Shown here: positions 13,201 through 27,407 of the stretch, piece by piece
Numbering within the stretch: the stretch's first letter is position 1
How the letters are laid out: each line of letters opens with the position of its first letter
Assembly (NCBI GenBank): GCA_024763405.1
Contig: JANTFQ010000001.1
Coordinates: forward strand, 1-27,407
Source of the DNA: Calditrichaceae bacterium
GTDB taxonomy: Bacteria; Calditrichota; Calditrichia; Calditrichales; Calditrichaceae
Reading direction: 5' to 3'
Length of the DNA: 27,407 nt
Translations under genes and position numbers: made by a program
The notes under the pieces: generated by a model
Seen by the model: only the letters and a program-made list of their open reading frames with translations
Told to the model about the DNA's origin: nothing
Databases searched by the model: none

Positions 13201-16200
13201 AACCCCAATGACCATTTCGAAAGATCGGCTGACAGACAAGCCCACAAAAGATTCGGAGCGAATGCCTTTTCCGATTAAAAAATGGGCCAGCTGATTGGCT
13301 TTTTTATTTAGCTCCGCATAACTCAATACTTGGTTCTTGTAAACTAAAGCGGGCGCATCCGGAGATAACAGGGTTTGTTTTTCGAATAGTGTGTGCAGGC
13401 AGGAATCCTGCGGAGCCGAGACAGGGGGAACATCATTGAATTCGTTTAATAAAAGTTCTGTTTCCTGTACCTTTAACAGTGGAAGAGCCTGAATGGACAA
13501 ATGTGGATTTTCTGTAGCCGACTGAATTAAATTCTTAAAATGTCCGAGCATCCGTTCCATCGTTGATTGATCAAAGAGATCTGTGTTATATTCCCATTCG
13601 CCGCCTATAATCTTATTGTGCTCGGCCATGGATAAGGTTATATCAAATTTAGCGATGCCGGTATCTATTTCCACCGGTTTAAATGCTAAGTTTTGGATTG
13701 TATTGTCTTGTAAAAACTGGGGCTGATAAGCGAACATTACCTGAAACAGAGGATTGTGGCTTAAACTTCGAGGGGTGTTCAGGGAGTCAACCAGTTTTTC
13801 AAATGGTAAATTCTGATGTGCAAATGCATCTGCTGTACGTTTTTTTAACTGCGTTAATAAAGTGGAAAAGGTTTGGTTTGGATAAAAATCTCCCCGGATT
13901 GCAAGTGTATTAATAAAAAAACCAATCATCGGTTCCAGTTCGGGACGGGTACGGTTAGCAACCGGAGTTCCGACAACAATCGTCTCCTCATTAGAATACC
14001 GGTATAACAATAGCTGAAAAGCGGTCATGAGCACTGTAAATGCTGTGGTTTGTACATTTGCCGCTAGTGCATTTATTTGCGTGGTTAGTTCTTTACCTAA
14101 GTCAAAACGGATACGATCGCCTTTAAATGTCTGTATCGATGGTCGCGGACGATCGGTGGGAAGTTCCAGTAATTCCGGGACGTCCATTAATTCTTTTTTC
14201 CAGAAATCGATTTCCTGGTTTAATACATCACCGCTGAAAAATTTTCGTTGCCACGCTGCGTAATCGACATATTGAAATGCCAGTGGTTCAAGTTTTGGTT
14301 TAATATTCATCGAAAAAGTGCTATAGAATGCCAATATATCTTTTACGATAACTCCAATGGACCACCCATCCGAAACAATATGGTGCATGTTTAGCATCAG
14401 GATAAAATCTTCGTTAGCCAGTTTAAGCAAACCCGATCGGAAGAGCGGTCCCTTCGTCAAATCAAAAGGCTTTACCGATTCTTCCTTACAGTATTTAAGA
14501 GCCGCAGTTTCGGCCTTTTTTAAAGGCATTTCCGAAAAATCCTGGCGATAGACTTGAAAGTCAACAGAGTCGAGAATGGTTTGAAAGGCTTTTCCGTCTT
14601 CTGCGTTAAAAACCGTCCGCAGACTTTCATGTCTTTGTACCAGGGCATGCAGGGCTTTGACAAGAGACGTTTCACTTAAATTGCCTTGAATACGAAGGGC
14701 TGTGGGAATATTGTAATTCGCTTTCCCGGGTTCCAGATTATCCAGAAACCACAAACGCTGCTGAGCAAAAGAGAGTTCGAGTGTCGTGTTTCTCTCGATC
14801 CTCTCAAAAGGCAGATAGGCAGAATGCTTATTTATAACTTGCTCGGAGGATTCTTTTAATTTGGCTATGAACGCCTTACTAATTTTAGATTGATGTAAAT
14901 TTGATTGCACAAATTCAAGTACAGAATCTGGAAAATTCTCTATTAAATATTGGGATAAGCCTGCAATGTGCTTCAATTCAAACATGATAGCTACATTCAG
15001 GTCCACATTAAGCTGTTTCTGCATTCGGTTTATAAAATAGGCCGCTTTTAAGGAATCGCCGCCTAATTGAAAAAAACTGTCAAAAACACTTATTTTTTTA
15101 AGATGCAAGGCGTCTTGCCATATATGTAAAAGAATGGTTTCCAGTTCGTTTCGGGGCGCCTGGTAACCGGGACGTAGCAGTTCCATTTCTTCTGGTACTA
15201 TAAATGCGCGGTAGTCGATTTTCCCATTTTCGGTTAAAGGCATCTTCTCAATTGGAATAAAAAAGGACGGTATCATATAATCGGGAAGAAATTCCTGTAT
15301 CTTCTGAGAAAGAATGGCAGGATCAATTTCCTGTTTATGCTCCGGAATAAAAAATACACAAAGCCTTTGCTTAAATGTTAAAACGACAACATCCTTAATT
15401 TCAGGAAGTTTTCGTATAACGGCTTCTATCTCGCCGGGTTCGATTCGGAATCCCCGCAGTTTTATTTGCCGGTCCACACGTCCTAAAAAGTCGATATTCC
15501 CATCCGGTAAAAACCGGGCACGGTCACCACTGCGGTACAGACGGCTTCCTGGAACGGAACTGAAGGGGTTTGGAATAAATTTTTGCGCCGTTAATTCCGG
15601 CTTTCCAAGATAACCACGGGCCAAACCTGCTCCGGCAATACATAATTCACCACTGATACCAGGCGGAACAGGCTGCAACCGGGAATCCAGAATATAGAGC
15701 TGAGTATTGTTTACTCCTTTACCAATGAGCGGTTTGGAAGAAGTTTCTGTTGCCCCCTTCCCGAAAGCGAAAATAGCCGCATCTACGGTGCATTCGGTTG
15801 GCCCGTAAACATTGTAAAAAGTGATATCGGTATTCGTTCTTAATATATTCCATAATTTGGTTCCGATGGCCTCACCGCCAACCAGAACAATAGCGGGTTG
15901 GTGCTTATTCTTATCGAAAAGACCGGATTCAATCATCAAGCTTAATTGTGACGGGGTGCAGTCTAAGGAATTCACTTTATGCGTGTGGATAAATTCCACC
16001 ATCGCATTCCCATCCAGGCGGGTTTCTTCGGGAATAATATGCAGGGTATGGCCATTCGCTAACTGAATCCATTGTTTCACTGAGGTATCAAATGTTAACG
16101 GTCCGTTTAAGCTAAGGTCTAAATGGTGTTGTTGATGCTTGTAGATTTTATCCTGTAAGGCATAAAATAGATTTAAAAGGGAAGAATGACGGATGCCGAT

Positions 16201-18187: not shown

Positions 18188-21100
18188 TTAATCCTCGTCT
18201 AATTCAGAAAAAAGATCTTCTAAAGCCTCTTCATTCAAATCAACGTCCTGGAAATCTGACGGTGTATATACGCCGCCGGCGTCATTTTTCAAAAAGGCCA
18301 GGAGTTTAATTAATTCCCCTTCGTAAAGGGCTAGAAATTTTTTAATGGATTCTGTTCTAAATTGATTCTTACTGTACATAATATCAATTAAAAGGTTTTT
18401 CCCTTTTATACTGGCGCTGATTTCGAGCAGATAACTGCGACGTGACCTGGGGCTGCGTTCGTCATCATTAAAACCAGCCAGAGGTTTAAACAGGCTTAAT
18501 TCCTCCGAATCAGGCTGGAATTGTCCGAGATAATTGAATACAATTTCGGGATTCTGTAAAGCTTTTAATTTTTCAGAGAAATCACTCCTAAGGTATTTTA
18601 ATATCCCAAAACCAATGCCATTGTTCGGAATATTGCGTAATTGCTCTTTAACAGCGATAATGGATTTTCCGGTTTCGCTCATTTGTGAAAGATCCAGGAA
18701 AACAGGATACATACTAGTAAACCAGCCAACGGTGCGGGCCAGGCTAACCTCTTCCATAATATCTTCGCGTCCATGACCTTCCATCGCCAGCCAGATTCTG
18801 CTGTGACCGCTCCAGATTTTAAAGGCCTTAATCAAAGCGGTCAGCAGAATATCATTAATCTGCGTATTATAAACCGTATGCGCACCCCGCAGCAGATATT
18901 CGGTCTCCGTTTCATCCAGAACAGTCGAAACAACGGCTGCAGAAGCTTCTGTATTTTCACCATCCGGAAAATCAGGAACCAATTTATCAAAGCGCTTTTC
19001 AGCCAGCGTGTTCCAATAGGGGATTTCTTCCTGTAATTTTTTATTATCCGCGTAAGCCGATAATTTTTCCGTCCATTGTTTAAAGGAAGTGGTCTTTGCC
19101 GGTAAAACCAGTTCGGCGTTTGCCGTTAATTGTCCGTATGCAGTTTGCATGTCTTCACTCAAAATGCGCCAGGAAAGACCGTCGACCGCCAGATGATGGA
19201 CTGCAATGAAAATGAGGTCATTTTTTCCGCTTCCGCGCTTAAAAATTGCTGCCTTAATAATAGGGCCGGTCTCAAGATTTAGTGAACTTTGTAATTTAGA
19301 AATCTGTCTATGAATATTTTCTGACTGAGCAGGCTCCTCTAATTTCGATAAATCAAATATAGAAATCAAATCCGATTCTTCTTTCTCTTCAATTTTTGCC
19401 TGCCAGATTTGATCGGTTTTCCAGAAGCGTAATCGCAGTGCATCATGATGTTCCACTATTTTTTTGATAACCTGAGATAATATCGTTTCATCCACGGAAG
19501 CGGCCGCTTCTAACATGAGGGACTGGTTCCAGTGCCAGGGCTCCGGATGATTCTGATTAAAAAATTCAATCTGGATAGGAGATAAAAGCACCGGACCCGA
19601 AACAGTACCTTGTTCGGCTTCTATTCTTTTGGTCTGTTCAGCAACCGCGGCCAGGCTCTCAATGGTCGGATTTTCAAACATCTGCTTCGGTGTAATGCGT
19701 AAACCGGCCTGGCCGGCGCGGGCCACCACCTGGATGCTTAAAATAGAATCGCCGCCCAGCTCGAAGAAATTATCCCGCGTGCCAATCTGTTCGATGCCAA
19801 GAACCGCTTTCCATGTTTCGCTAAGAATTTTTTCTTTATCCGTGGAAGCTTCGATAAATTCAGTTCCCAAATCCGAACGGTCAAATTCCGGTTCTGGAAG
19901 CGCCCGACGGTTTACTTTTCCGTTGGGCAATAGTGGAAAAGCGTTTAAAGTAACGAAAGCAGCGGGCACCATATATTCGGGCAGAGTTTCTTTCAGGAAG
20001 CTGCGTATTTCAGGTATTTCAATATTTTTGTCCCTTTCCGCAACCAGGTAGGCGGCCAGCCGTTTGTCGCCCTCTTTTACTTCGCGCACAAGAACAACCG
20101 CATCTTTTACCGATTCGTGTTCCCTCAAACGGGATTCTATTTCGCCCAGTTCCATTCGGAATCCGCGCAGTTTTACCTGATGGTCCACCCGGCCGAGAAA
20201 CTCTACATTGCCGTCGGAAAGCCAGCGCACTAAATCGCCGGTCTTGTACATACGCGCCGCTTTGTCTTTGCAAAACGGATCGGCTATAAATTTTTCGGCA
20301 GTCAGTTCGGGACGGTTTAAATACCCTCTTGCCAACCCGTCTCCGGCGATGTATAACTCGCCTGCGGCTCCGACAGGAACCGGCTGCCCGCTTTGATCCA
20401 GGATGTAAAAGCGCGCGTTTGAAACAGGTTTTCCGATGACCGGGCGCAGTGGGCTGCTTTGTACATTACAAATAGTGGAATCAACCGTACATTCGGTCGG
20501 TCCGTACATATTGAAAAAAAGTATGTCCTTCGAGTCGACCAGTTTTTTCCAGGTTACCTCGTCGATGGCTTCGCCGCCGGGCAGAACCGCCAGCGGTTTC
20601 CATTCATCAGCATCCAGCAATCCAGCGTCTAATAGTAATTTTAGCTGTGCGGGTACACAATCCAGAACTTGGATCTTATATTTTCGGATATAGTCCAGCA
20701 TCGTATCACCGCTGCCTCGTGTTTCCATAGGAATAATTTGTAATCCGTGGCCGTGTGCCAGCATCACAATCTGCTGAACCGATGCATCAAAAGGTATGGG
20801 TGCATTTAAGCTTATTTTTAATTTTGTATTTCCAAAACAGCTGTAAATGGTTTGCTTTAAATTCTCTGCCAGGTGTAAAGCTGATTTATGGGAAATCATA
20901 ACCCCTTTGGGCTTTCCGGTGGAGCCGGAGGTGTAAATTATGTACGCCAGACTGTCTGTACTCTGCGTTAAATTTGGATTTTGAACAGATTCATTTGAGA
21001 TTTCCGCTCCCACCGTATCCAGAGCGATGACGCGCGTATTCGTTAACGCTAAATCAGTCACGGTCTCGGAATGAGTCAGCAGAAAGGGAACATGGGCGTC

Positions 21101-24100
21101 TGTAAGCATAAAATCGAGCCGTTCCTCTGGATAGGCCGGATCCAGCGGCAGATAGGCGCAGCCGGCTTTCCAGATGGCCAGCATGCTGACAATCATGTCG
21201 GTGGAGCGTTCCATTAAAATGCCGATAATGCTTTCTTGTTTTACCCCGGATTTTAATAGAAAAGAAGCAACCTGATTGGCGCGGGCGTTCAACTGTTCAA
21301 AGTTCAGCGTTTCGTCATTAATGCCTGCGGCAAATTGCTGAGGTTGTATTTTGGCCTGTTTTTCAATCAGATGATGGAGACATTTATCGGTCGGGTAATC
21401 AAGCATAGCGGGACGCCACTCAACGAGCATTTTATGCTGTTCCTCTTCTTTTAACAGAGGCAGCTCGGAAATATTTTGATCAGGATTTCGGACAATGGAT
21501 TCAAGAAGCGTGGTAAAATGACCCATTATTCGCTGGATGGTTTCTTCCTTAAACAGGCTGGTTTTATATTCCAGAATGGCAACCATGCGATTGGTATGCT
21601 CAATAATTTCTAAATTCAGATCAAATTTAGCGGTTTCTGTTTCAATGGCAAAAGGGGAGTAAGAGAGTTCTTCTAAATGTATTTCCTGAATATCCGAATG
21701 CTGCATGGAAAACATAACCTGAAAGAGTGGCGTATGGTTCATTTCCCGTTCCGGCTGGAGTGTGTCCACTAATTTTTCGAAGGGCATGTCCTGATGGTCA
21801 AAAGCGTCCATTGCTATTTTTTTGACCAGCCGTAGATGATGCCGGAATGAGCGGTTTTTGTTTATTGTACTGCGTAACACCAGGGTATTTACAAAAAAGC
21901 CAATTAATGGTTCAATTTCTCTGCGGTTACGGTTTGCCACCGGCGTCCCGATAGTAAAATCATCCTGGCCGGAATAGCGGTAGAGTAGGGTTTCGAATGC
22001 TGTCAGCAGAACCATAAATAAGGTGGTTTCGTGCTCTTTACTCAGTTGATTCAGTTGTTGGTAGAGGGCATCCGGTACACGATGCACCAACCGTTTTCCC
22101 TGATATGAAACCATAGCAGGTCTGGGAAAATCAGTAGGTAGTTCCAAAAAGAAGGAAGCGCCATCCAACTGTTTTTTCCAGAACGTCATTTCGTTTTCCA
22201 GGCGCGAACCGCTTAACCACTGACGTTGCCAGGCTGCAAAATCGGCATATTGAATTTGTAACGGAGTCAAAGGAATGGGTTCGTCTTTTATCAGCGCGTT
22301 GTAGATAAGTGAAAGTTCCCTAACCAGTACATTGACAGACCAGCCGTCGGATATAATATGATGCACCGTAATCATCAGTATATATTCCTGATCGGAAATT
22401 TTAAAAAGTTTGGCTCGTATCAACGGCGCCTTGCTCAAATCGAACGGTTTAGCAGATTCCTGATTGGCCCGTAGAATGAGATCGCTATCCGAAACACCGG
22501 CAGAATCTACGACCGGTAAGTCCAATTTTAATTGCGGTAAAATAACCTGCGATGCTTTTCCTTCTGCTGAGCTGCGAAAAATGGTACGAAGATTTTCGTG
22601 GCGCTGAACAATAAGATTTAAAGCCTGCAACATCTTTTCGACATCGAGTGTACCTTTGAGGCGAATAGCTCCCGGAATATTGTATTGTGGATTCCCTGGT
22701 TCCATTTGATCCAGGAACCACAAACGCTGTTGAGCAAAGGAAAGAGGCAGCTCGTCTGTTCGCGGAATGACCGGGATGCCTTGTATGGCAGTCGATTGAG
22801 AATGGGCAATATTCTTTTCCACAGGATAGCCGAACGCTTTAGCCAGTTCCCAGGTTATATCGCTTAAAAAATTATTTTTATGATGTTCACGCCAACGATC
22901 GGTGACGCTGGTATCGATATTTTTATGTAAATAAAATTTAAAATCGCCCACCATCTGAGAATGTTTACTCACCCCGTCTGTCATTTTATTACCCTGATAG
23001 GGTTTCAGCATATCCGGTTCAAAATCGATGTCTATAAAATTGCATATTCGCAGCATTTCGTTATACGGATCGAGTAATAGATCTTCAAAACGTAACCGTA
23101 TCTTTCGTTCATCGGGAATATCCTGTAAAAAGCGATTTATGTTTTGGTGACTGATAATATAGATCAATTCACCCAGTTCCCGCCGGGTAAAAGGATGTTC
23201 ATAACGAAAGAAATTCTGATCCAGTTTAGCTTCGATAAAAGAATACACCATGGCATAGGGATGCCGCAATAAATGGATGTACTTAGCCTGAGTAAAGTCC
23301 TGTTCCGCACGTTTTAAAATTTCAGGGTCAAAAGGATAAGTGGGCGATTTATCTACTAATATGCGGTCACCCATCCATTCCTGCAATGTGCGGTAATATT
23401 CTTTTACGCTCATATTCTGCGCCACAAAACCATCCATAATCCGGCGTGCCTCATCCACATCGGTCTGTTTTAATTCCTTGATAGCGCGGATGGTTGCTTC
23501 CAACCAGATTTCCAGGCCTTCTTCTGAAAAAGCTTCCCTGCGTTCCCGCACTGTGTTAAAAGAAAGCAAATCAAGTTCCGGCGGGGAGAAAAGTTTTTGA
23601 TTGCCGGCCAGCATCACGCGCAGCAGGGTAGAACCGGAACGCGGCGGGGATAGAACAAAGATGGCTGAAGGGTTTTTAGTAGAATCTGTTTCCGTACGTT
23701 GCGGCAGAGGCGTAATGATTTTTCGAATAGTGTCAATCTGTGGTTGTCCGATTTTATGCACTACTTCTTCGGCGACGTCAATCAGTTTATAAAGTTGATG
23801 AACCGATTCGTCTAATTCGAAACGTTCGCGGGTCAATTGCGGGTAATAATTAACAATATATCCGGCTAACTCGGCGATGGTCGGCGCTTTAAATACGACG
23901 CTTACATGGGTCACTTCGCCAAATTCTTTTTGCAAACGGTTGGCAAATACAGCGGCCTTTAATGAATTTCCGCCCAGTTCAAAAAAATTGTCGTGGATTC
24001 CTACTCTATCAATCGTCAAAATTTCGCCCCAAATCTCGGACAGAAATTGCTCTAGATTATTTCGGGGAGCCGTATATTGGGCTTCCATATCCGGACGTGC

Positions 24101-27100
24101 GTGACCAGGGGCAGGCAAAGCGTTTTTATCCACTTTCCCGTTTGGCGTTAACGGAATGCTGTCCATTTCCACCCAGGCAAAAGGAACCATATAATCGGGC
24201 AGTTTTTCGAGCAGGAAAGCACGTAGAACAGATGTTTTTATCTCCTGTTTTTCATTGGGAACAATATAAGCCGTTAGTACTTTGTCACCAGGATTATCCT
24301 GGCGCGCCAAAACCACGGCGTCTTTAAGCAGAGGATTTGTTTTTAAAACGGACTCAATTTCTCCCAGTTCAATCCGAAACCCGCGAATTTTTACCTGCTG
24401 ATCGATACGGGCCAGAAATTCAATATTTCCATCCGGAAGCCAGCGTACCAGGTCGCCGGTTTTATACAGCATTGAATTGCCGGAAGGGTCAAACGGGTTT
24501 TTTATAAAACGTTCGGCGGTTAACTCTTTCCGTTTCAAATATTCTAAAGCGAGGCCATCGCCACCCACATATAATTCACCCGGGATGCCAATTGGGACTA
24601 CCTGTATTTTTTTATTGAATACATACATCGTTGAATTCGCGATTGGTTTCCCGATTGGCACATTTGTGTCTGTTTCAGCAATTTTTTTAACTTTATACCA
24701 GGTAGAAAAAGTAGTGTTTTCCGTAGGACCATATACGTGTAATAAATTTTGTGGTGGTTCTGAGAGCGCTATTTTTCGAACAGAAGACGGATCCACCATT
24801 TCTCCGCCGAACATTACGGTATCCAGTGTTTTAAATGCGGAGGAATTCTCAGCGGCAATCTGGTTGAAAAGAGCGGTTGTTAGAAAAAGATGGCTAATTT
24901 CCTTATCCTTTAAAGCCTGAATAAAACTCTGTGTGGAAAGCATCACATCTTTTGGAATAGCAACGAGCCTGGCGCCGTTTAGTAAAGCGCCCCAGATTTC
25001 AAAAGTGGCAGCGTCAAAAGCAGCGTTTGACGCCTGAGCAATATTATGATTTGCTTTGATACGTACATAATCGGTATTTATAACCAGACGAATAACTGCC
25101 CGGTGGGGAACGATAACACCCTTTGGAATTCCGGTTGAACCGGAAGTGTAAATAATGTAGGCGCGATCTAAAGGTTTAGATAATACGGCAAGTGATTCGG
25201 CACTATAATCGGCAAGTAATTGGTCGTTGTCAATAGCCAAAGAAACGGCGCTGCCTTCGGGAAGATCGTCCAAAAGTTCCGTTTTTGTAAGTAATAATGA
25301 GGCCTCGGTATCTTTGAGGATAAATGATAAACGGTCCTTTGGATAAGAGATATCTAATGGAACATAAGCTGCTCCGGCTTTTAAGATGGCAAGGAAACCA
25401 ATGATCATATCCATCGAGCGCTCCATATAAAGAGCAACAAGATGACCGGGCTCCACCCCTTTCTCAATCAATAAATGGGCGAGTTGATTTGATTTGCTGT
25501 TTAATTCTTTATAAGTATAACTGAGGCTGTCATAGCGAACTGCAATCGCATCCGGTGTCTTTGCAACCTGCTGTTCAAATAATTCGGGAATGGAAGAGTC
25601 GGCCGGATAATTTGTAGCGGTCTGATTCCATTCGGTTAAAATGCGTGTTTGTTCTTTCTCGGAAATCAATGAAAGATTGGATATTTTCTCACTTGGATTG
25701 TTGAGTGCATTTTTGAGTAAGGTATGGAAATAACTGCTAAAACGACTGATGGTCTCTTCCGAGAACAGGTCGCGGTTATATTCAAAGGTACATTTGATAT
25801 GGTCCTCATGCTCGAGCATCAGAAGCAACAGGTCAAATTTGGCGACTTCTACTTCAATATCAACGATTTCGAGCGTAATCGAATCCATTGTAACACGTTC
25901 AAACGGTACCGTTTGTAAATCGAACATCACCTGAAAGAGCGGGGAATGCCCTAATTGAGGAGCGCCTGAAACGGATTCAACAATTTTTTCGAAGGGCACA
26001 TCCTGATTGTCGGAAGCGGTGATTACATCATTTTTAACACGCTGTATCAATTCGGCAAAGGTCATATCCGTTCTAAAATCAGCCCGTAAGACAACGGTGT
26101 TTACGAATAATCCAATGATGGATTCAATCTCGGCCCGGTTGCGGTTGGCAATGGGAGCGCCAACGCCAAAATCATCCTGCCCGCTGACTTTGTGCAGGAA
26201 TACCTGAAAAACAGCCATAATCAGAGCATACAGGGAAACTCCTTGTTCACGGCTCAGACGTCGCATCTTTTCGGTCAGTGCTTTTTTAATGGTAAAAAGG
26301 TGCTGGCGGCCGTTGTAAGTCTGGAAATCCGGACGGGGATAATCCGTATATAAATCTAAAAAATCGGGCATTCCCGATAAAGCATTTTTCCAGTACTGAA
26401 GCTGTTTCTCGATGGTGTTTCCAACAGCTCGTTCGGCCTGCCAGGCGGCATAATCCGCATATTGCAAATGCAAATCGGGTAATTCTGTTTGTGGTTCCTT
26501 TACAAGAATTCGATAATTGGAAATAATCTCATTTATAATAATTCCGATAGACCAGCCATCCGTGACAATATGATGGATGTCCAAACTGAGTACATACTGG
26601 CCTGGTTTGATTTTTAAAATGAACGATCGAATCAGCGGCGGGTTCGTCAAATCAAAAGGTTTGGCAGCGTCTTCTTTTAATAATTCCTGTATACGCTGAT
26701 CCATCTGCGCGGCAGGGGTGTTGCTAATGTCAATTTTAGGAATATCAATTTTATAGTTAGAAACGATAATCTGTTCCGCTTCGCCTTTTTCGTTGGTCAT
26801 AAAACCGGCGCGTAATACTTCGTGGCGGCGGATAATTTCATGGATACTTTTTCTTAAAATTTCCAGGTCGATATTGCCCGTTAACCGAATCGCCGAAGGA
26901 ATATTATAAAAGGCCGAATCCGGATCGAGTTGGTTCATAAACCACAAGCGCATCTGTGAAGATGAAATAGGGTACCGATGCTGTTCTTTTCTCTTCGTAA
27001 TCCGTCTGTTTTTTTGATCCGGTTTTTTTTGCGCTTGAAGTTTTTTTAGCAGCAGTTCGCGCTTTTCCGGAGAGAGTCCGGCCAATCGTTTGTGTATAGC

Positions 27101-27106
27101 TGACAT
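18188..27106 (-). CDS. NRPS B, 2972 aa: docking helix-C(LCL)-A(Ile-like)-T-sulfotransferase-C(LCL)-A(Gln)-T-E-COM
   Basis: ORF track. C1 HHIVTDGWS. A1 code DAFFMGVTFK is close to Ile codes DAFFLGVTFK/DAFFYGITFK. T1 is GGNSLKAA. A ~290-aa insert carries PPRSGSTLLRVMLAG. C2 HHIISDGWS. A2 code DAQDLGMVDK is close to the lichenysin Gln code DAQDLGVVDK. T2 GGDSILSIQ. E domain HHLAVDGLSW, EGHGRE, RTVGWFT. Tail TPSDF. Confidence 0.97.
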   Translation of the reverse strand: MSAIHKRLAGLSPEKRELLLKKLQAQKKPDQKNRRITKRKEQHRYPISSSQMRLWFMNQLDPDSAFYNIPSAIRLTGNIDLEILRKSIHEIIRRHEVLRAGFMTNEKGEAEQIIVSNYKIDIPKIDISNTPAAQMDQRIQELLKEDAAKPFDLTNPPLIRSFILKIKPGQYVLSLDIHHIVTDGWSIGIIINEIISNYRILVKEPQTELPDLHLQYADYAAWQAERAVGNTIEKQLQYWKNALSGMPDFLDLYTDYPRPDFQTYNGRQHLFTIKKALTEKMRRLSREQGVSLYALIMAVFQVFLHKVSGQDDFGVGAPIANRNRAEIESIIGLFVNTVVLRADFRTDMTFAELIQRVKNDVITASDNQDVPFEKIVESVSGAPQLGHSPLFQVMFDLQTVPFERVTMDSITLEIVDIEVEVAKFDLLLLMLEHEDHIKCTFEYNRDLFSEETISRFSSYFHTLLKNALNNPSEKISNLSLISEKEQTRILTEWNQTATNYPADSSIPELFEQQVAKTPDAIAVRYDSLSYTYKELNSKSNQLAHLLIEKGVEPGHLVALYMERSMDMIIGFLAILKAGAAYVPLDISYPKDRLSFILKDTEASLLLTKTELLDDLPEGSAVSLAIDNDQLLADYSAESLAVLSKPLDRAYIIYTSGSTGIPKGVIVPHRAVIRLVINTDYVRIKANHNIAQASNAAFDAATFEIWGALLNGARLVAIPKDVMLSTQSFIQALKDKEISHLFLTTALFNQIAAENSSAFKTLDTVMFGGEMVDPSSVRKIALSEPPQNLLHVYGPTENTTFSTWYKVKKIAETDTNVPIGKPIANSTMYVFNKKIQVVPIGIPGELYVGGDGLALEYLKRKELTAERFIKNPFDPSGNSMLYKTGDLVRWLPDGNIEFLARIDQQVKIRGFRIELGEIESVLKTNPLLKDAVVLARQDNPGDKVLTAYIVPNEKQEIKTSVLRAFLLEKLPDYMVPFAWVEMDSIPLTPNGKVDKNALPAPGHARPDMEAQYTAPRNNLEQFLSEIWGEILTIDRVGIHDNFFELGGNSLKAAVFANRLQKEFGEVTHVSVVFKAPTIAELAGYIVNYYPQLTRERFELDESVHQLYKLIDVAEEVVHKIGQPQIDTIRKIITPLPQRTETDSTKNPSAIFVLSPPRSGSTLLRVMLAGNQKLFSPPELDLLSFNTVRERREAFSEEGLEIWLEATIRAIKELKQTDVDEARRIMDGFVAQNMSVKEYYRTLQEWMGDRILVDKSPTYPFDPEILKRAEQDFTQAKYIHLLRHPYAMVYSFIEAKLDQNFFRYEHPFTRRELGELIYIISHQNINRFLQDIPDERKIRLRFEDLLLDPYNEMLRICNFIDIDFEPDMLKPYQGNKMTDGVSKHSQMVGDFKFYLHKNIDTSVTDRWREHHKNNFLSDITWELAKAFGYPVEKNIAHSQSTAIQGIPVIPRTDELPLSFAQQRLWFLDQMEPGNPQYNIPGAIRLKGTLDVEKMLQALNLIVQRHENLRTIFRSSAEGKASQVILPQLKLDLPVVDSAGVSDSDLILRANQESAKPFDLSKAPLIRAKLFKISDQEYILMITVHHIISDGWSVNVLVRELSLIYNALIKDEPIPLTPLQIQYADFAAWQRQWLSGSRLENEMTFWKKQLDGASFFLELPTDFPRPAMVSYQGKRLVHRVPDALYQQLNQLSKEHETTLFMVLLTAFETLLYRYSGQDDFTIGTPVANRNRREIEPLIGFFVNTLVLRSTINKNRSFRHHLRLVKKIAMDAFDHQDMPFEKLVDTLQPEREMNHTPLFQVMFSMQHSDIQEIHLEELSYSPFAIETETAKFDLNLEIIEHTNRMVAILEYKTSLFKEETIQRIMGHFTTLLESIVRNPDQNISELPLLKEEEQHKMLVEWRPAMLDYPTDKCLHHLIEKQAKIQPQQFAAGINDETLNFEQLNARANQVASFLLKSGVKQESIIGILMERSTDMIVSMLAIWKAGCAYLPLDPAYPEERLDFMLTDAHVPFLLTHSETVTDLALTNTRVIALDTVGAEISNESVQNPNLTQSTDSLAYIIYTSGSTGKPKGVMISHKSALHLAENLKQTIYSCFGNTKLKISLNAPIPFDASVQQIVMLAHGHGLQIIPMETRGSGDTMLDYIRKYKIQVLDCVPAQLKLLLDAGLLDADEWKPLAVLPGGEAIDEVTWKKLVDSKDILFFNMYGPTECTVDSTICNVQSSPLRPVIGKPVSNARFYILDQSGQPVPVGAAGELYIAGDGLARGYLNRPELTAEKFIADPFCKDKAARMYKTGDLVRWLSDGNVEFLGRVDHQVKLRGFRMELGEIESRLREHESVKDAVVLVREVKEGDKRLAAYLVAERDKNIEIPEIRSFLKETLPEYMVPAAFVTLNAFPLLPNGKVNRRALPEPEFDRSDLGTEFIEASTDKEKILSETWKAVLGIEQIGTRDNFFELGGDSILSIQVVARAGQAGLRITPKQMFENPTIESLAAVAEQTKRIEAEQGTVSGPVLLSPIQIEFFNQNHPEPWHWNQSLMLEAAASVDETILSQVIKKIVEHHDALRLRFWKTDQIWQAKIEEKEESDLISIFDLSKLEEPAQSENIHRQISKLQSSLNLETGPIIKAAIFKRGSGKNDLIFIAVHHLAVDGLSWRILSEDMQTAYGQLTANAELVLPAKTTSFKQWTEKLSAYADNKKLQEEIPYWNTLAEKRFDKLVPDFPDGENTEASAAVVSTVLDETETEYLLRGAHTVYNTQINDILLTALIKAFKIWSGHSRIWLAMEGHGREDIMEEVSLARTVGWFTSMYPVFLDLSQMSETGKSIIAVKEQLRNIPNNGIGFGILKYLRSDFSEKLKALQNPEIVFNYLGQFQPDSEELSLFKPLAGFNDDERSPRSRRSYLLEISASIKGKNLLIDIMYSKNQFRTESIKKFLALYEGELIKLLAFLKNDAGGVYTPSDFQDVDLNEEALEDLFSELDED
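18192..18196 (-). promoter_or_regulatory. Putative Shine-Dalgarno (GAGGA) for NRPS C, inside the last codons of NRPS B
   Basis: GAGGA-TTAAT-ATG. The B stop and C start are separated by 1 nt, consistent with translational coupling. Confidence 0.65.
18290..19590 (-). other. Epimerization domain of NRPS B (approximate bounds)
   Basis: LSPIQIEFF, HHLAVDGLSWRIL, MEGHGRE, RTVGWFTSMYP, FNYLGQF; preceded by a GGDSI-type T domain. Confidence 0.93.
22817..23677 (-). other. Embedded PAPS-dependent sulfotransferase domain (CurM/Ols ST-like) within NRPS B
   Basis: Sequence shows IFVLSPPRSGSTLLRVMLAG (5'-phosphosulfate-binding loop), FSPPEL, LVDKSPTY, YIHLLRHPY (3'-phosphate-binding region), RFEDL, DFEPDMLKPYQG and MTDGV. 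These match the motif order of curacin CurM and olefin-synthase ST domains as I recall them. Confidence 0.92.
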
Positions 27107-27146: not shown

Positions 27147-27407
27147 CTATTCATCATTTAGCAGTTTTTCGAGTTCTTCATCGGATAAATCTTCGATTTC
27201 GGACAGCATCGATTCCAGTTCGTCACTATCCTGGTATTCGGCCTGGGCCTCTGTAATGGAAAGGGCAATTCCTTCCACGGTTGGTTTTTCAAATAAGGTG
27301 CGCAGCGAAATTTCCACATCAAACTCTTCGCGAATACGTGAGACTACCTGTGTGGCCATCATCGAATGACCGCCCAAATCAAAGAAACTGTCCTTAACGC
27401 CGGCCTT
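27147..27407 (-). CDS. NRPS (or hybrid PKS/NRPS) A, C-terminal fragment only: T domain + acidic docking helix
   Basis: Frame is open to the window edge: KAGVKDSFFDLGGHSMMATQVVSRIREEF...LSEIEDLSDEELEKLLNDE*. The ORF-track TTG start at 27377 is internal. Confidence 0.93.
   Translation of the reverse strand, partial: KAGVKDSFFDLGGHSMMATQVVSRIREEFDVEISLRTLFEKPTVEGIALSITEAQAEYQDSDELESMLSEIEDLSDEELEKLLNDE

Follow-up and report, generated by a model that had tools for sequence, protein, structure and literature searches.

An In-Line Sulfotransferase in an Elongation Module of a Calditrichaceae Nonribosomal Peptide Synthetase and Its Putative Role in Lipopeptide Sulfonation

What does a sulfotransferase (ST) do when it is placed in the middle of a peptide assembly line, and which group of the growing chain would it modify? 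This question is raised by a stretch of 27,407 nucleotides from an uncultured Calditrichaceae bacterium (hereafter the window), which is the entire contig C1 of a 2.56-Mb genome consisting of 402 contigs and estimated to be 72.6% complete. Every large open reading frame (ORF) of the window lies on the minus strand, to which all window coordinates below refer. Based on the ORF list, translation, Pfam, and domain parsing, the central gene encodes a nonribosomal peptide synthetase (NRPS) subunit, NRPS B (P0001, 2972 amino acids (aa), 18188–27106), with the order C-A-T-ST-C-A-T-E (C, condensation; A, adenylation; T, carrier; E, epimerisation). A prediction previously made from the letters alone had described here an intact CurM/Ols-like ST of about 290 aa between the first carrier and an LCL-type C domain, with no thioesterase (TE), and had proposed that the sulfate is either retained on the peptide or used for an internal elimination to a dehydro residue. 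The architecture was confirmed in all these points; sulfate on the module's own residue and an internal dehydro residue both found little support. With moderate confidence, we instead consider the ST to be an active enzyme dependent on 3'-phosphoadenosine-5'-phosphosulfate (PAPS), which together with its carrier forms a T-ST cassette and sulfonates the constant N-terminal part of a carrier-bound lipopeptide, the sulfate being kept in the product.

The ST occupies aa 1144-1430 (22817–23677), as delimited by Pfam, phmmer, alignment, and a structural model. Both Pfam families that had been proposed for a hidden Markov model scan matched this region, Sulfotransfer_3 at aa 1149-1364 (E 8.9e-26, 91.9 bits with a cut-off of 27) and Sulfotransfer_1 at aa 1147-1370 (E 3.4e-08), and they are flanked by PP-binding (aa 1021-1084) and Condensation (aa 1451-1894) matches. 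Among Protein Data Bank (PDB) sequences, phmmer matched the whole domain to CurM ST (4gbm, E 3.9e-67) and OLS ST (4gox, E 1.9e-58), and beyond these two no PDB sequence matched below E 0.08. An AlphaFold2 model of the first carrier (T1) and the ST, calculated from a 48-sequence alignment, had a mean pLDDT of 89.5 and a pTM of 0.84. Foldseek superposed it on 4gbm with a target-normalised TM of 0.94 and an rmsd of 2.1, and on 4gox with 0.95 and 1.7, respectively, the next structural neighbours being tyrosylprotein sulfotransferases. By sequence, motifs, and fold, the domain is a CurM/OLS-type sulfotransferase. It contains PPRSGST (aa 1154-1160, 23627–23647), PPELD (23570–23584), DKSP (aa 1252-1255, 23342–23353), and RHPY (aa 1281-1284, 23255–23266); we take PRSGST to be the 5'-phosphosulfate loop and RHP the 3'-phosphate region, which together with DK(S/T)P would be the PAPS-binding motifs.

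The ST belongs to an elongation module. T1 (aa 1015-1090, 23837–24064; Pfam and motif reading) carries its phosphopantetheine serine in GGNS at aa 1045-1048 and is of the GGNSLKAAVF type that is typical of carriers ahead of ST domains, GGNS being present in 90 of 154 ST-preceding carriers. A linker recognised from sequence matches (aa 1091-1143, 23678–23836), helical in the AlphaFold2 model, leads to the ST, behind which C2 (aa 1450-1895, 21422–22759; Pfam and domain parsing) is an ordinary LCL-type condensation domain with HHIISDG (aa 1582-1588, 22343–22363). The chain continues through C2-A2-T2-E, and no TE is encoded in the 27,407-nt window according to the ORF list, Pfam, and domain parsing. 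This setting distinguishes the window ST from CurM ST (curacin A) and OLS ST (olefin synthase of Synechococcus PCC 7002) and places it outside their ACP-ST-TE off-loading system (ACP, acyl carrier protein). The three share the fold, PRSGST, the PPE glutamate, DK(S/T)P, and RHP, and the window ST is likewise fused directly behind a carrier and presumably acts on a carrier-tethered substrate. However, CurM ST and OLS ST follow the ACP of a polyketide synthase (PKS) module that contains a ketoreductase (KR), whereas the window ST follows the NRPS carrier of a Val/Ile-like module, and relatives place the KR-containing PKS module two modules upstream. Furthermore, a C domain takes the place of the TE, hence no decarboxylative off-loading is possible, and the acceptor is probably remote from the thioester.

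In-cis STs in NRPSs are also known from FkbH-PCP-ST starter modules (PCP, peptidyl carrier protein), in which glycerate is sulfated and the sulfate is retained. The example named in the original prediction, OciA of cyanopeptolin/oscillapeptin (PMC2533009), was confirmed, and AerB of suomilide and varlaxin (PMC10143770) and DysB of dysinosin (PMC6520454) belong to the same type. By published architecture, on which this comparison is based, the window ST has the same PCP-ST-C order, and by analogy it would work most like these enzymes. They differ from it in being loading modules with FkbH and without an A or C domain, in which the loaded unit is the acceptor, whereas the window ST lacks an FkbH domain and belongs to a C-A-T elongation module, the code of which is of the amino-acid type (Asp235 is retained) and whose own residue would have no hydroxyl; the ST apparently does not act on the loaded unit.

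Several features argue for an active enzyme. In an alignment of 158 NRPS-embedded ST domains, all invariant or nearly invariant columns are retained in the window ST, including R1156, G1158, and T1160 of the 5'-phosphosulfate-binding loop, P1175, P1176, and E1177, which align with the PPE glutamate of CurM (Glu60), and D1252, K1253, R1281, H1282, P1283, R1334, E1341, G1387, and D1388. When P0001 is compared with its closest relative, L001, no domain has evolved more slowly than the ST (91% aa identity, dN 0.05), the other domains having 43-81% identity and dN of 0.11-0.60; only dN and aa identity were used for this comparison since dS was saturated. Along the alignment of P0001 (18188–27106) with L001:3673-12585, identity is markedly uneven (ST 91%, C2 81%, A1 65%, C1 61%, E 43%), which may reflect a strongly constrained ST or else a subunit that is a mosaic of recombined parts. 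Genes for PAPS supply, which had been suggested as something to look for in the flanking cluster, are present in the genome but on contig C33, where a cysD-like gene, a cysN/C-like gene, and two adenosine-5'-phosphosulfate (APS) kinase genes were found. In this C33 cluster (L040:5127-9369), one APS kinase is full and the second APS-kinase gene is fused to DUF2061; the neighbours are of sugar type (hexapeptide transferase, GFO/IDH/MocA oxidoreductase), so that the PAPS may also feed polysaccharide sulfation. Conservation and the PAPS genes together suggest that the window ST is catalytically active.

The assembly line to which NRPS B belongs can be seen in related clusters, whereas in its own genome the pieces are distributed over contigs C124, C131, C1, C13, and C59. 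In the same-genus genome G001 and in G011, the line starts with an AraC-type regulator, a FAAL-ACP-KS-AT-DH-ER-KR-ACP protein (FAAL, fatty acyl-AMP ligase; KS, ketosynthase; AT, acyltransferase; DH, dehydratase; ER, enoylreductase), a PKS/NRPS hybrid, and a KS-AT-KR-ACP module, and continues with a module for the first amino acid (aa1), NRPS B, a second C-A-T-ST-C-A-T-E subunit (codes DAEHVGAITK and DAQDLGVVDK), and further NRPSs, the whole line accounting for some 15 residues or more. An MFS transporter, a separate TE of 249-269 aa, a phosphopantetheinyl transferase (PPTase), and two free Sulfotransfer_3 genes stand at the end of the cluster. A C-A-T protein of about 1120 aa lies ahead of the ST-bearing subunit in 12 clusters (G001, G005, G007, G008, G011, G026, G036, L001, L002, L029, L030, and L031), with the code DAENIGAITK in 11 of them and DAENLGMITK in G036, and a DH-less KS-AT-KR-ACP module precedes this aa1 protein in the 11 clusters that are not cut there. 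By translation match, the window holds the 3' end of such a C-A-T gene (27147–27407; T and an acidic docking tail, the last 86 codons plus stop), the translation of which differs hardly at all from the C-terminal end of the C-A-T protein (1121 aa) in G001 and in L001; therefore, the window has the same order as its relatives. In the own genome, a separate TE gene of the 269-aa type was located at the cluster end on contig C59, and one in-line ST only was found in this incomplete genome. The expected product of the cluster would be a multiply sulfonated lipopeptide. The KS-AT-KR-ACP module has no clear LDD or W motif and hence gives no hint on the configuration of the 3-hydroxyl. In the middle of the NRPS gene row, there is also a conserved Ig-domain protein of 451 aa (648 aa in G007) with a type IX secretion sorting tail (L016:6126-7481 in G001, L019:1355-2710 in G011, G007:C1:1645740-1647686, and C13:11839-13143 in the own genome).

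The following scheme would account for this organization. A CurM/OLS-family ST would have been recruited jointly with its carrier, the two forming a T-ST cassette in the second peptide module of a line primed by FAAL and PKS. The intermediate 3-hydroxyacyl-aa1-Val/Ile would be parked on T1, where the ST transfers a sulfonate group to it, and C2 would then hand the sulfonated chain on, so that the sulfate is retained in the product. The two free-standing sulfotransferases, the MFS exporter, the separate thioesterase, and the PPTase would complete the cluster. Catalytic activity, the timing on T1, the acceptor, and the retention of the sulfate are the parts of this scheme that we infer.

The ST clade and two natural rearrangements of its cassette bear on what the ST acts on. 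In a midpoint-rooted ST tree, the window ST falls in a clade of 88 sequences (SH-like support 0.99), in which the adjacent A codes are Val/Ile-like in 56 cases, Ser in 8, basic-like in 6, Tyr-like in 2, Gln in 1, and other in 6. The constant feature of this clade lies upstream, in the KS-AT-KR-ACP module and the aa1 module after it. The complete genome G007 lacks both the Val/Ile and the Gln module, and an ST of the same clade is fused there to the aa1 module as C-A-T-T'-ST (L026, G007:C1:1672403-1677094). Residues 1-1097 of this fusion are 62% identical to the aa1 protein of G011 and residues 1135-1562 are 47% identical to T1-ST of the G011 B subunit, and the serine of T' has been lost, GGDD replacing GGxS. 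Six proteins of the form C-A-T-ST-T'-ST-C-A-T-E (P0024, P0025, P0028, P0029, P0033, and P0036) have a first ST from another clade and a second ST from the window clade, the latter again behind a serine-less T' (GGNE, GGDD, or GGDE). In these carriers, Asp or Glu thus stands in place of the serine wherever a normal T comes first, in C-A-T-T'-ST as well as in C-A-T-ST-T'-ST-C. The cassette therefore retains its ST after the loss of "its" residue, with its own carrier turning into a dummy behind a real carrier, which suggests that the T of a T-ST cassette can act as a structural adaptor only.

These rearrangements also bear on the possibility that the ST acts on another carrier (a 3-hydroxyacyl group on the PKS ACP, or the T of the aa1 module, in trans) or on the released peptide, T1 being its structural partner only. 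The persistence of the ST next to a serine-less T' behind a real carrier indicates that it can use a foreign carrier, and action in trans on a carrier-bound peptide is known for SulN of sulfazecin, a PAPS-dependent enzyme that sulfonates the side-chain amine of a basic residue in a PCP-bound peptide ahead of the following step of the line (PMC11298585). By its description, however, SulN differs in being free-standing, in acting in trans on the last module, and in setting up β-lactam formation by the TE. The window's own T1 has retained its serine and is the sole carrier of module 1, and the AlphaFold2 model presents T1-ST as one confident unit; we therefore regard action on another carrier or a released peptide as rather unlikely.

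The sulfation of the module's own residue is approximately as doubtful. It would require either cryptic β-hydroxylation of a T1-bound Val/Ile or the loading of a hydroxy-analogue, with the ester kept on residue 2. Specificity codes, which are predictions, were obtained with hmmalign, each A domain being mapped onto a profile built from those of the window. This procedure yielded textbook codes for Phe (DAWTIAAVCK), Thr (DFWNIGMVHK), Ser (DVWHISLVDK), Tyr (DASTVAAVCK), Orn (DVGEIGSIDK), Gln (DAQDLGVVDK), Asn (DATKVGEVGK), and Leu (DAWFLGNVVK), which validates the mapping. The first A domain of NRPS B, A1 (aa 500-1000, 24107–25609), has the Val/Ile-like code DAFFMGVTFK, which we take to fall between the published Val and Ile codes and to denote a residue without a hydroxyl. 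Own-residue sulfation has its best support in the mostly acidobacterial relatives. There, the uncharacterised cassettes of Acidobacteriota and others (T-ST-C and T-ST-TE) belong to the same family (45-52% identity) and have the same cassette and carrier type; the ST-bearing module is Ser/Thr/Tyr-coded in 53 of 69 readable cases, compared with 12 of 39 ST-less modules of the same proteins, and ST sub-clades track the residue type. This fits sulfation of the module's own side chain in those lines and suggests that it was the ancestral logic of the cassette; a Ser- or Thr-S-T is, moreover, a 3-hydroxyacyl thioester like the CurM substrate. The Acidobacteriota-type STs thus track the hydroxyl-bearing residue of their own module, whereas the window clade does not: in the window ST family, a Ser/Thr/Tyr code was read in only 10 of the 73 ST-bearing modules that were readable, and the adjacent residue varies freely in the 88-member clade. 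Pfam detected no hydroxylase when applied to the small ORFs of the clusters in G001 and G011 and to the scanned G001 megasynthases, nor was one found in the G007 cluster, which was parsed with our own domain queries only. A conserved protein of 327 aa beside the free STs was considered as a candidate oxygenase and rejected, as it is a CarboxypepD_reg-like β-sandwich. In view of the Val/Ile code, the lack of a hydroxylase in these scans, the variable codes of the clade, and the persistence of the ST both in G007, without the Val module, and after serine-less pseudo-carriers, we regard the module's own residue as an improbable acceptor.

The same evidence makes an elimination of the dehydroalanine (Dha) or dehydrobutyrine (Dhb) type an unlikely purpose of the ST. 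More generally, the sulfate could serve only briefly as a leaving group, in the manner of CurM, LGS1, and pathways that form aziridines: the ST would activate a hydroxyl for elimination or cyclisation, the outcome being a dehydro residue, a ring, or a 2-enoyl lipid, with no sulfate left from the ST step. The closest solved relatives, CurM ST and OLS ST, are indeed "activating" sulfotransferases, and sulfation-assisted ring formation occurs among the structural neighbours (22ga). Nevertheless, an ordinary LCL C domain, not a TE, comes next after the ST, no residue is suited to yield Dha or Dhb, a DH domain would be a cheaper route to a 2-enoyl group and is present in the first PKS of the cluster, and the two free sulfotransferases are in line with a sulfated end product. 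We consider this explanation to be improbable as well.

If the ST sulfonates the N-terminal part of the lipopeptide, as we favour, its acceptor may be sought among the groups that remain constant in the relatives. The single best guess, still a tentative one, is the 3-hydroxyl supplied by the DH-less KS-AT-KR-ACP module, because it is the only canonical hydroxyl in 3-hydroxyacyl-aa1-Val and the kind of acceptor known for CurM-family STs. A somewhat less likely candidate is the side chain of residue 1, whose code DAENIGAITK is of a basic type with Glu at position 239. It is suggested by the G007 fusion of the ST to the aa1 module, by the similar DAEH/DAED-coded modules that other ST clades follow in these clusters, and by the N-sulfonation of a PCP-bound peptide containing 2,3-diaminopropionate (Dap) by SulN; on the other hand, N-sulfonation of such residues in nonribosomal peptides would be new chemistry, or an unseen hydroxylation would be needed. 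There is little probability that the acceptor is the module's own residue, and the remainder lies with other options. More speculatively, and with a probability that we would put well below even, the whole clade may represent a remote-site tailoring cassette that sulfonates the chain at a distance of one or two residues from the thioester, and whose own T degenerates to a serine-less adaptor beside another carrier. In the boldest version, the acceptor would be an Arg/Lys-type side-chain nitrogen, giving a sulfamate or sulfoguanidine, and the sister clades behind DAEH/DAED modules would act likewise on their own residue.

Several observations weigh against an active ST that sulfonates the N-terminal part of the chain. 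The comparative argument is based on related clusters, which are non-independent samples. The ST is not located directly behind the PKS ACP as in CurM, which would be the simplest site for a 3-hydroxyl acceptor. The DAEH/DAED modules ahead of other ST clades have no obvious hydroxyl, and the ST group as a whole may therefore carry out something other than plain O-sulfation. A β-hydroxy analogue might fit the Val/Ile-like pocket, at least in principle, and a hydroxylase might be encoded outside the cluster. Finally, the position of CurM His62, which is His in both solved STs, is Asp1179 in the window ST; Asp or Glu is found there in nearly all 158 NRPS STs, and this appears to be a family trait of NRPS STs, not decay. 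That the ST is catalytically dead and kept as a scaffold or linker is very improbable: the ST-less version of the cassette next door in P0002 (described below) implies that the line can work without an ST there, and the His62 replacement points the same way, but the residues for PAPS binding and those invariant across the family are all in place, no other domain of P0001 is as well conserved relative to L001, and Asp/Glu at this position is common to almost all its NRPS homologs.

The remaining parts of NRPS B are regular. Pfam recognised three Condensation stretches, two AMP-binding, two PP-binding, and one sulfotransferase stretch in P0001. C1 (aa 45-480, 25667–26974; Pfam Condensation and domain parsing) follows an N-terminal docking helix. 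A2 (aa 1915-2410, 19877–21364) has a Gln-like code by code reading, DAQDLGMVDK, and T2 (aa 2425-2495, 19622–19834; Pfam and motif reading) is of the GGDSILS type that precedes E domains. The E domain (aa 2510-2950, 18257–19579; domain parsing) contains HHLAVDG (19178–19198) and is followed by a C-terminal docking tail. At the junction to the next subunit (18188–18260 / 18186), B ends with E and this docking tail, and P0002 opens with a C domain (HHIIADGWS), a combination flagged earlier as an E-to-LCL mismatch.

The neighbouring P0002 (10243–18186) contains a T1 and linker (14779–15165, minus strand) that are colinear with T1 and the entire pre-ST linker of P0001, after which the alignment jumps to the start of P0001 C2. 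This stretch looks like a T-ST cassette from which the ST is cleanly missing. With only 38-45% identity between P0002 and the ST-bearing second subunits found in relatives, the loss of the ST would not be recent; the first A code of P0002 is DTKDLGVVDK, Glu-like, in place of the DAEHVGAITK of the ST-bearing counterparts. An orthology of P0002 with a 2638-aa NRPS of G001, with which it shares the first A code, was considered and rejected in view of a full-length identity of 42% and the match of the ST-less cassette.

How widespread is this layout? The original prediction knew of no characterised NRPS elongation module with such an architecture. This part of the claim stands, since a full-text literature search (MIBiG and antiSMASH-DB being outside its scope) found no characterised NRPS elongation module carrying an ST; it also found nothing on Caldithrix NRPSs. 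On the other hand, a mid-line ST is a common arrangement in environmental DNA. When the ST region was used as query, a word-indexed search matched 1320 proteins at E<=1e-3, and an exhaustive search of 1.84 billion representatives at 50% identity with the ST matched 1120 at E<=1e-30. Both T-ST-C and T-ST with a TE-sized tail behind it recurred in the first 123 proteins, often several times in one protein. In 134 further 50%-identity representatives, A-T-ST-C was the commonest context (54 times), followed by A-T-ST with a TE-sized tail (25 times), and rarer contexts included A-T-ST-KS and (A-)KR-T-ST. The source names of the matches point to Calditrichota/KSB1 ("Zhuqueibacterota"), Ignavibacteriota, Chloroflexota, and Acidobacteriota, and within the own taxonomic family an ST match was found in 19 of the 25 genomes searched. 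Many NRPSs (P0008, P0009, P0013, P0019, P0020, P0022, P0023, P0026, P0027, and others) end with A(Ser/Thr/Tyr)-T-ST and a TE-sized tail, a peptide counterpart of ACP-ST-TE; where source names are given, these proteins come from Acidobacteriota or Thermoanaerobaculia. In addition, STs were observed in a loading position ahead of KS (A-T-ST-KS-AT) or behind KR-containing units (A-KR-T-ST), at loci L038 (G049:C1:4692982-4700000) and L039 (G045:C18:239744-250000) and in P0216, P0252, P0223, and P0250.

To our knowledge, sulfated nonribosomal peptides are rare among known natural products, and the only in-line NRPS STs described so far sit in glycerate starter modules. The window ST is one of a very large group of T-ST cassettes, found in elongation as well as termination modules and so far unstudied, a kind of on-line tailoring that current tools for predicting structures from biosynthetic gene clusters do not model. 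Its clade poses a puzzle of its own, that of a tailoring domain whose position in the line seems not to mark its acceptor. Should these cassettes prove active, poly-sulfated lipopeptides would be made in many uncultured bacteria of sediment and soil by tailoring on the assembly line.

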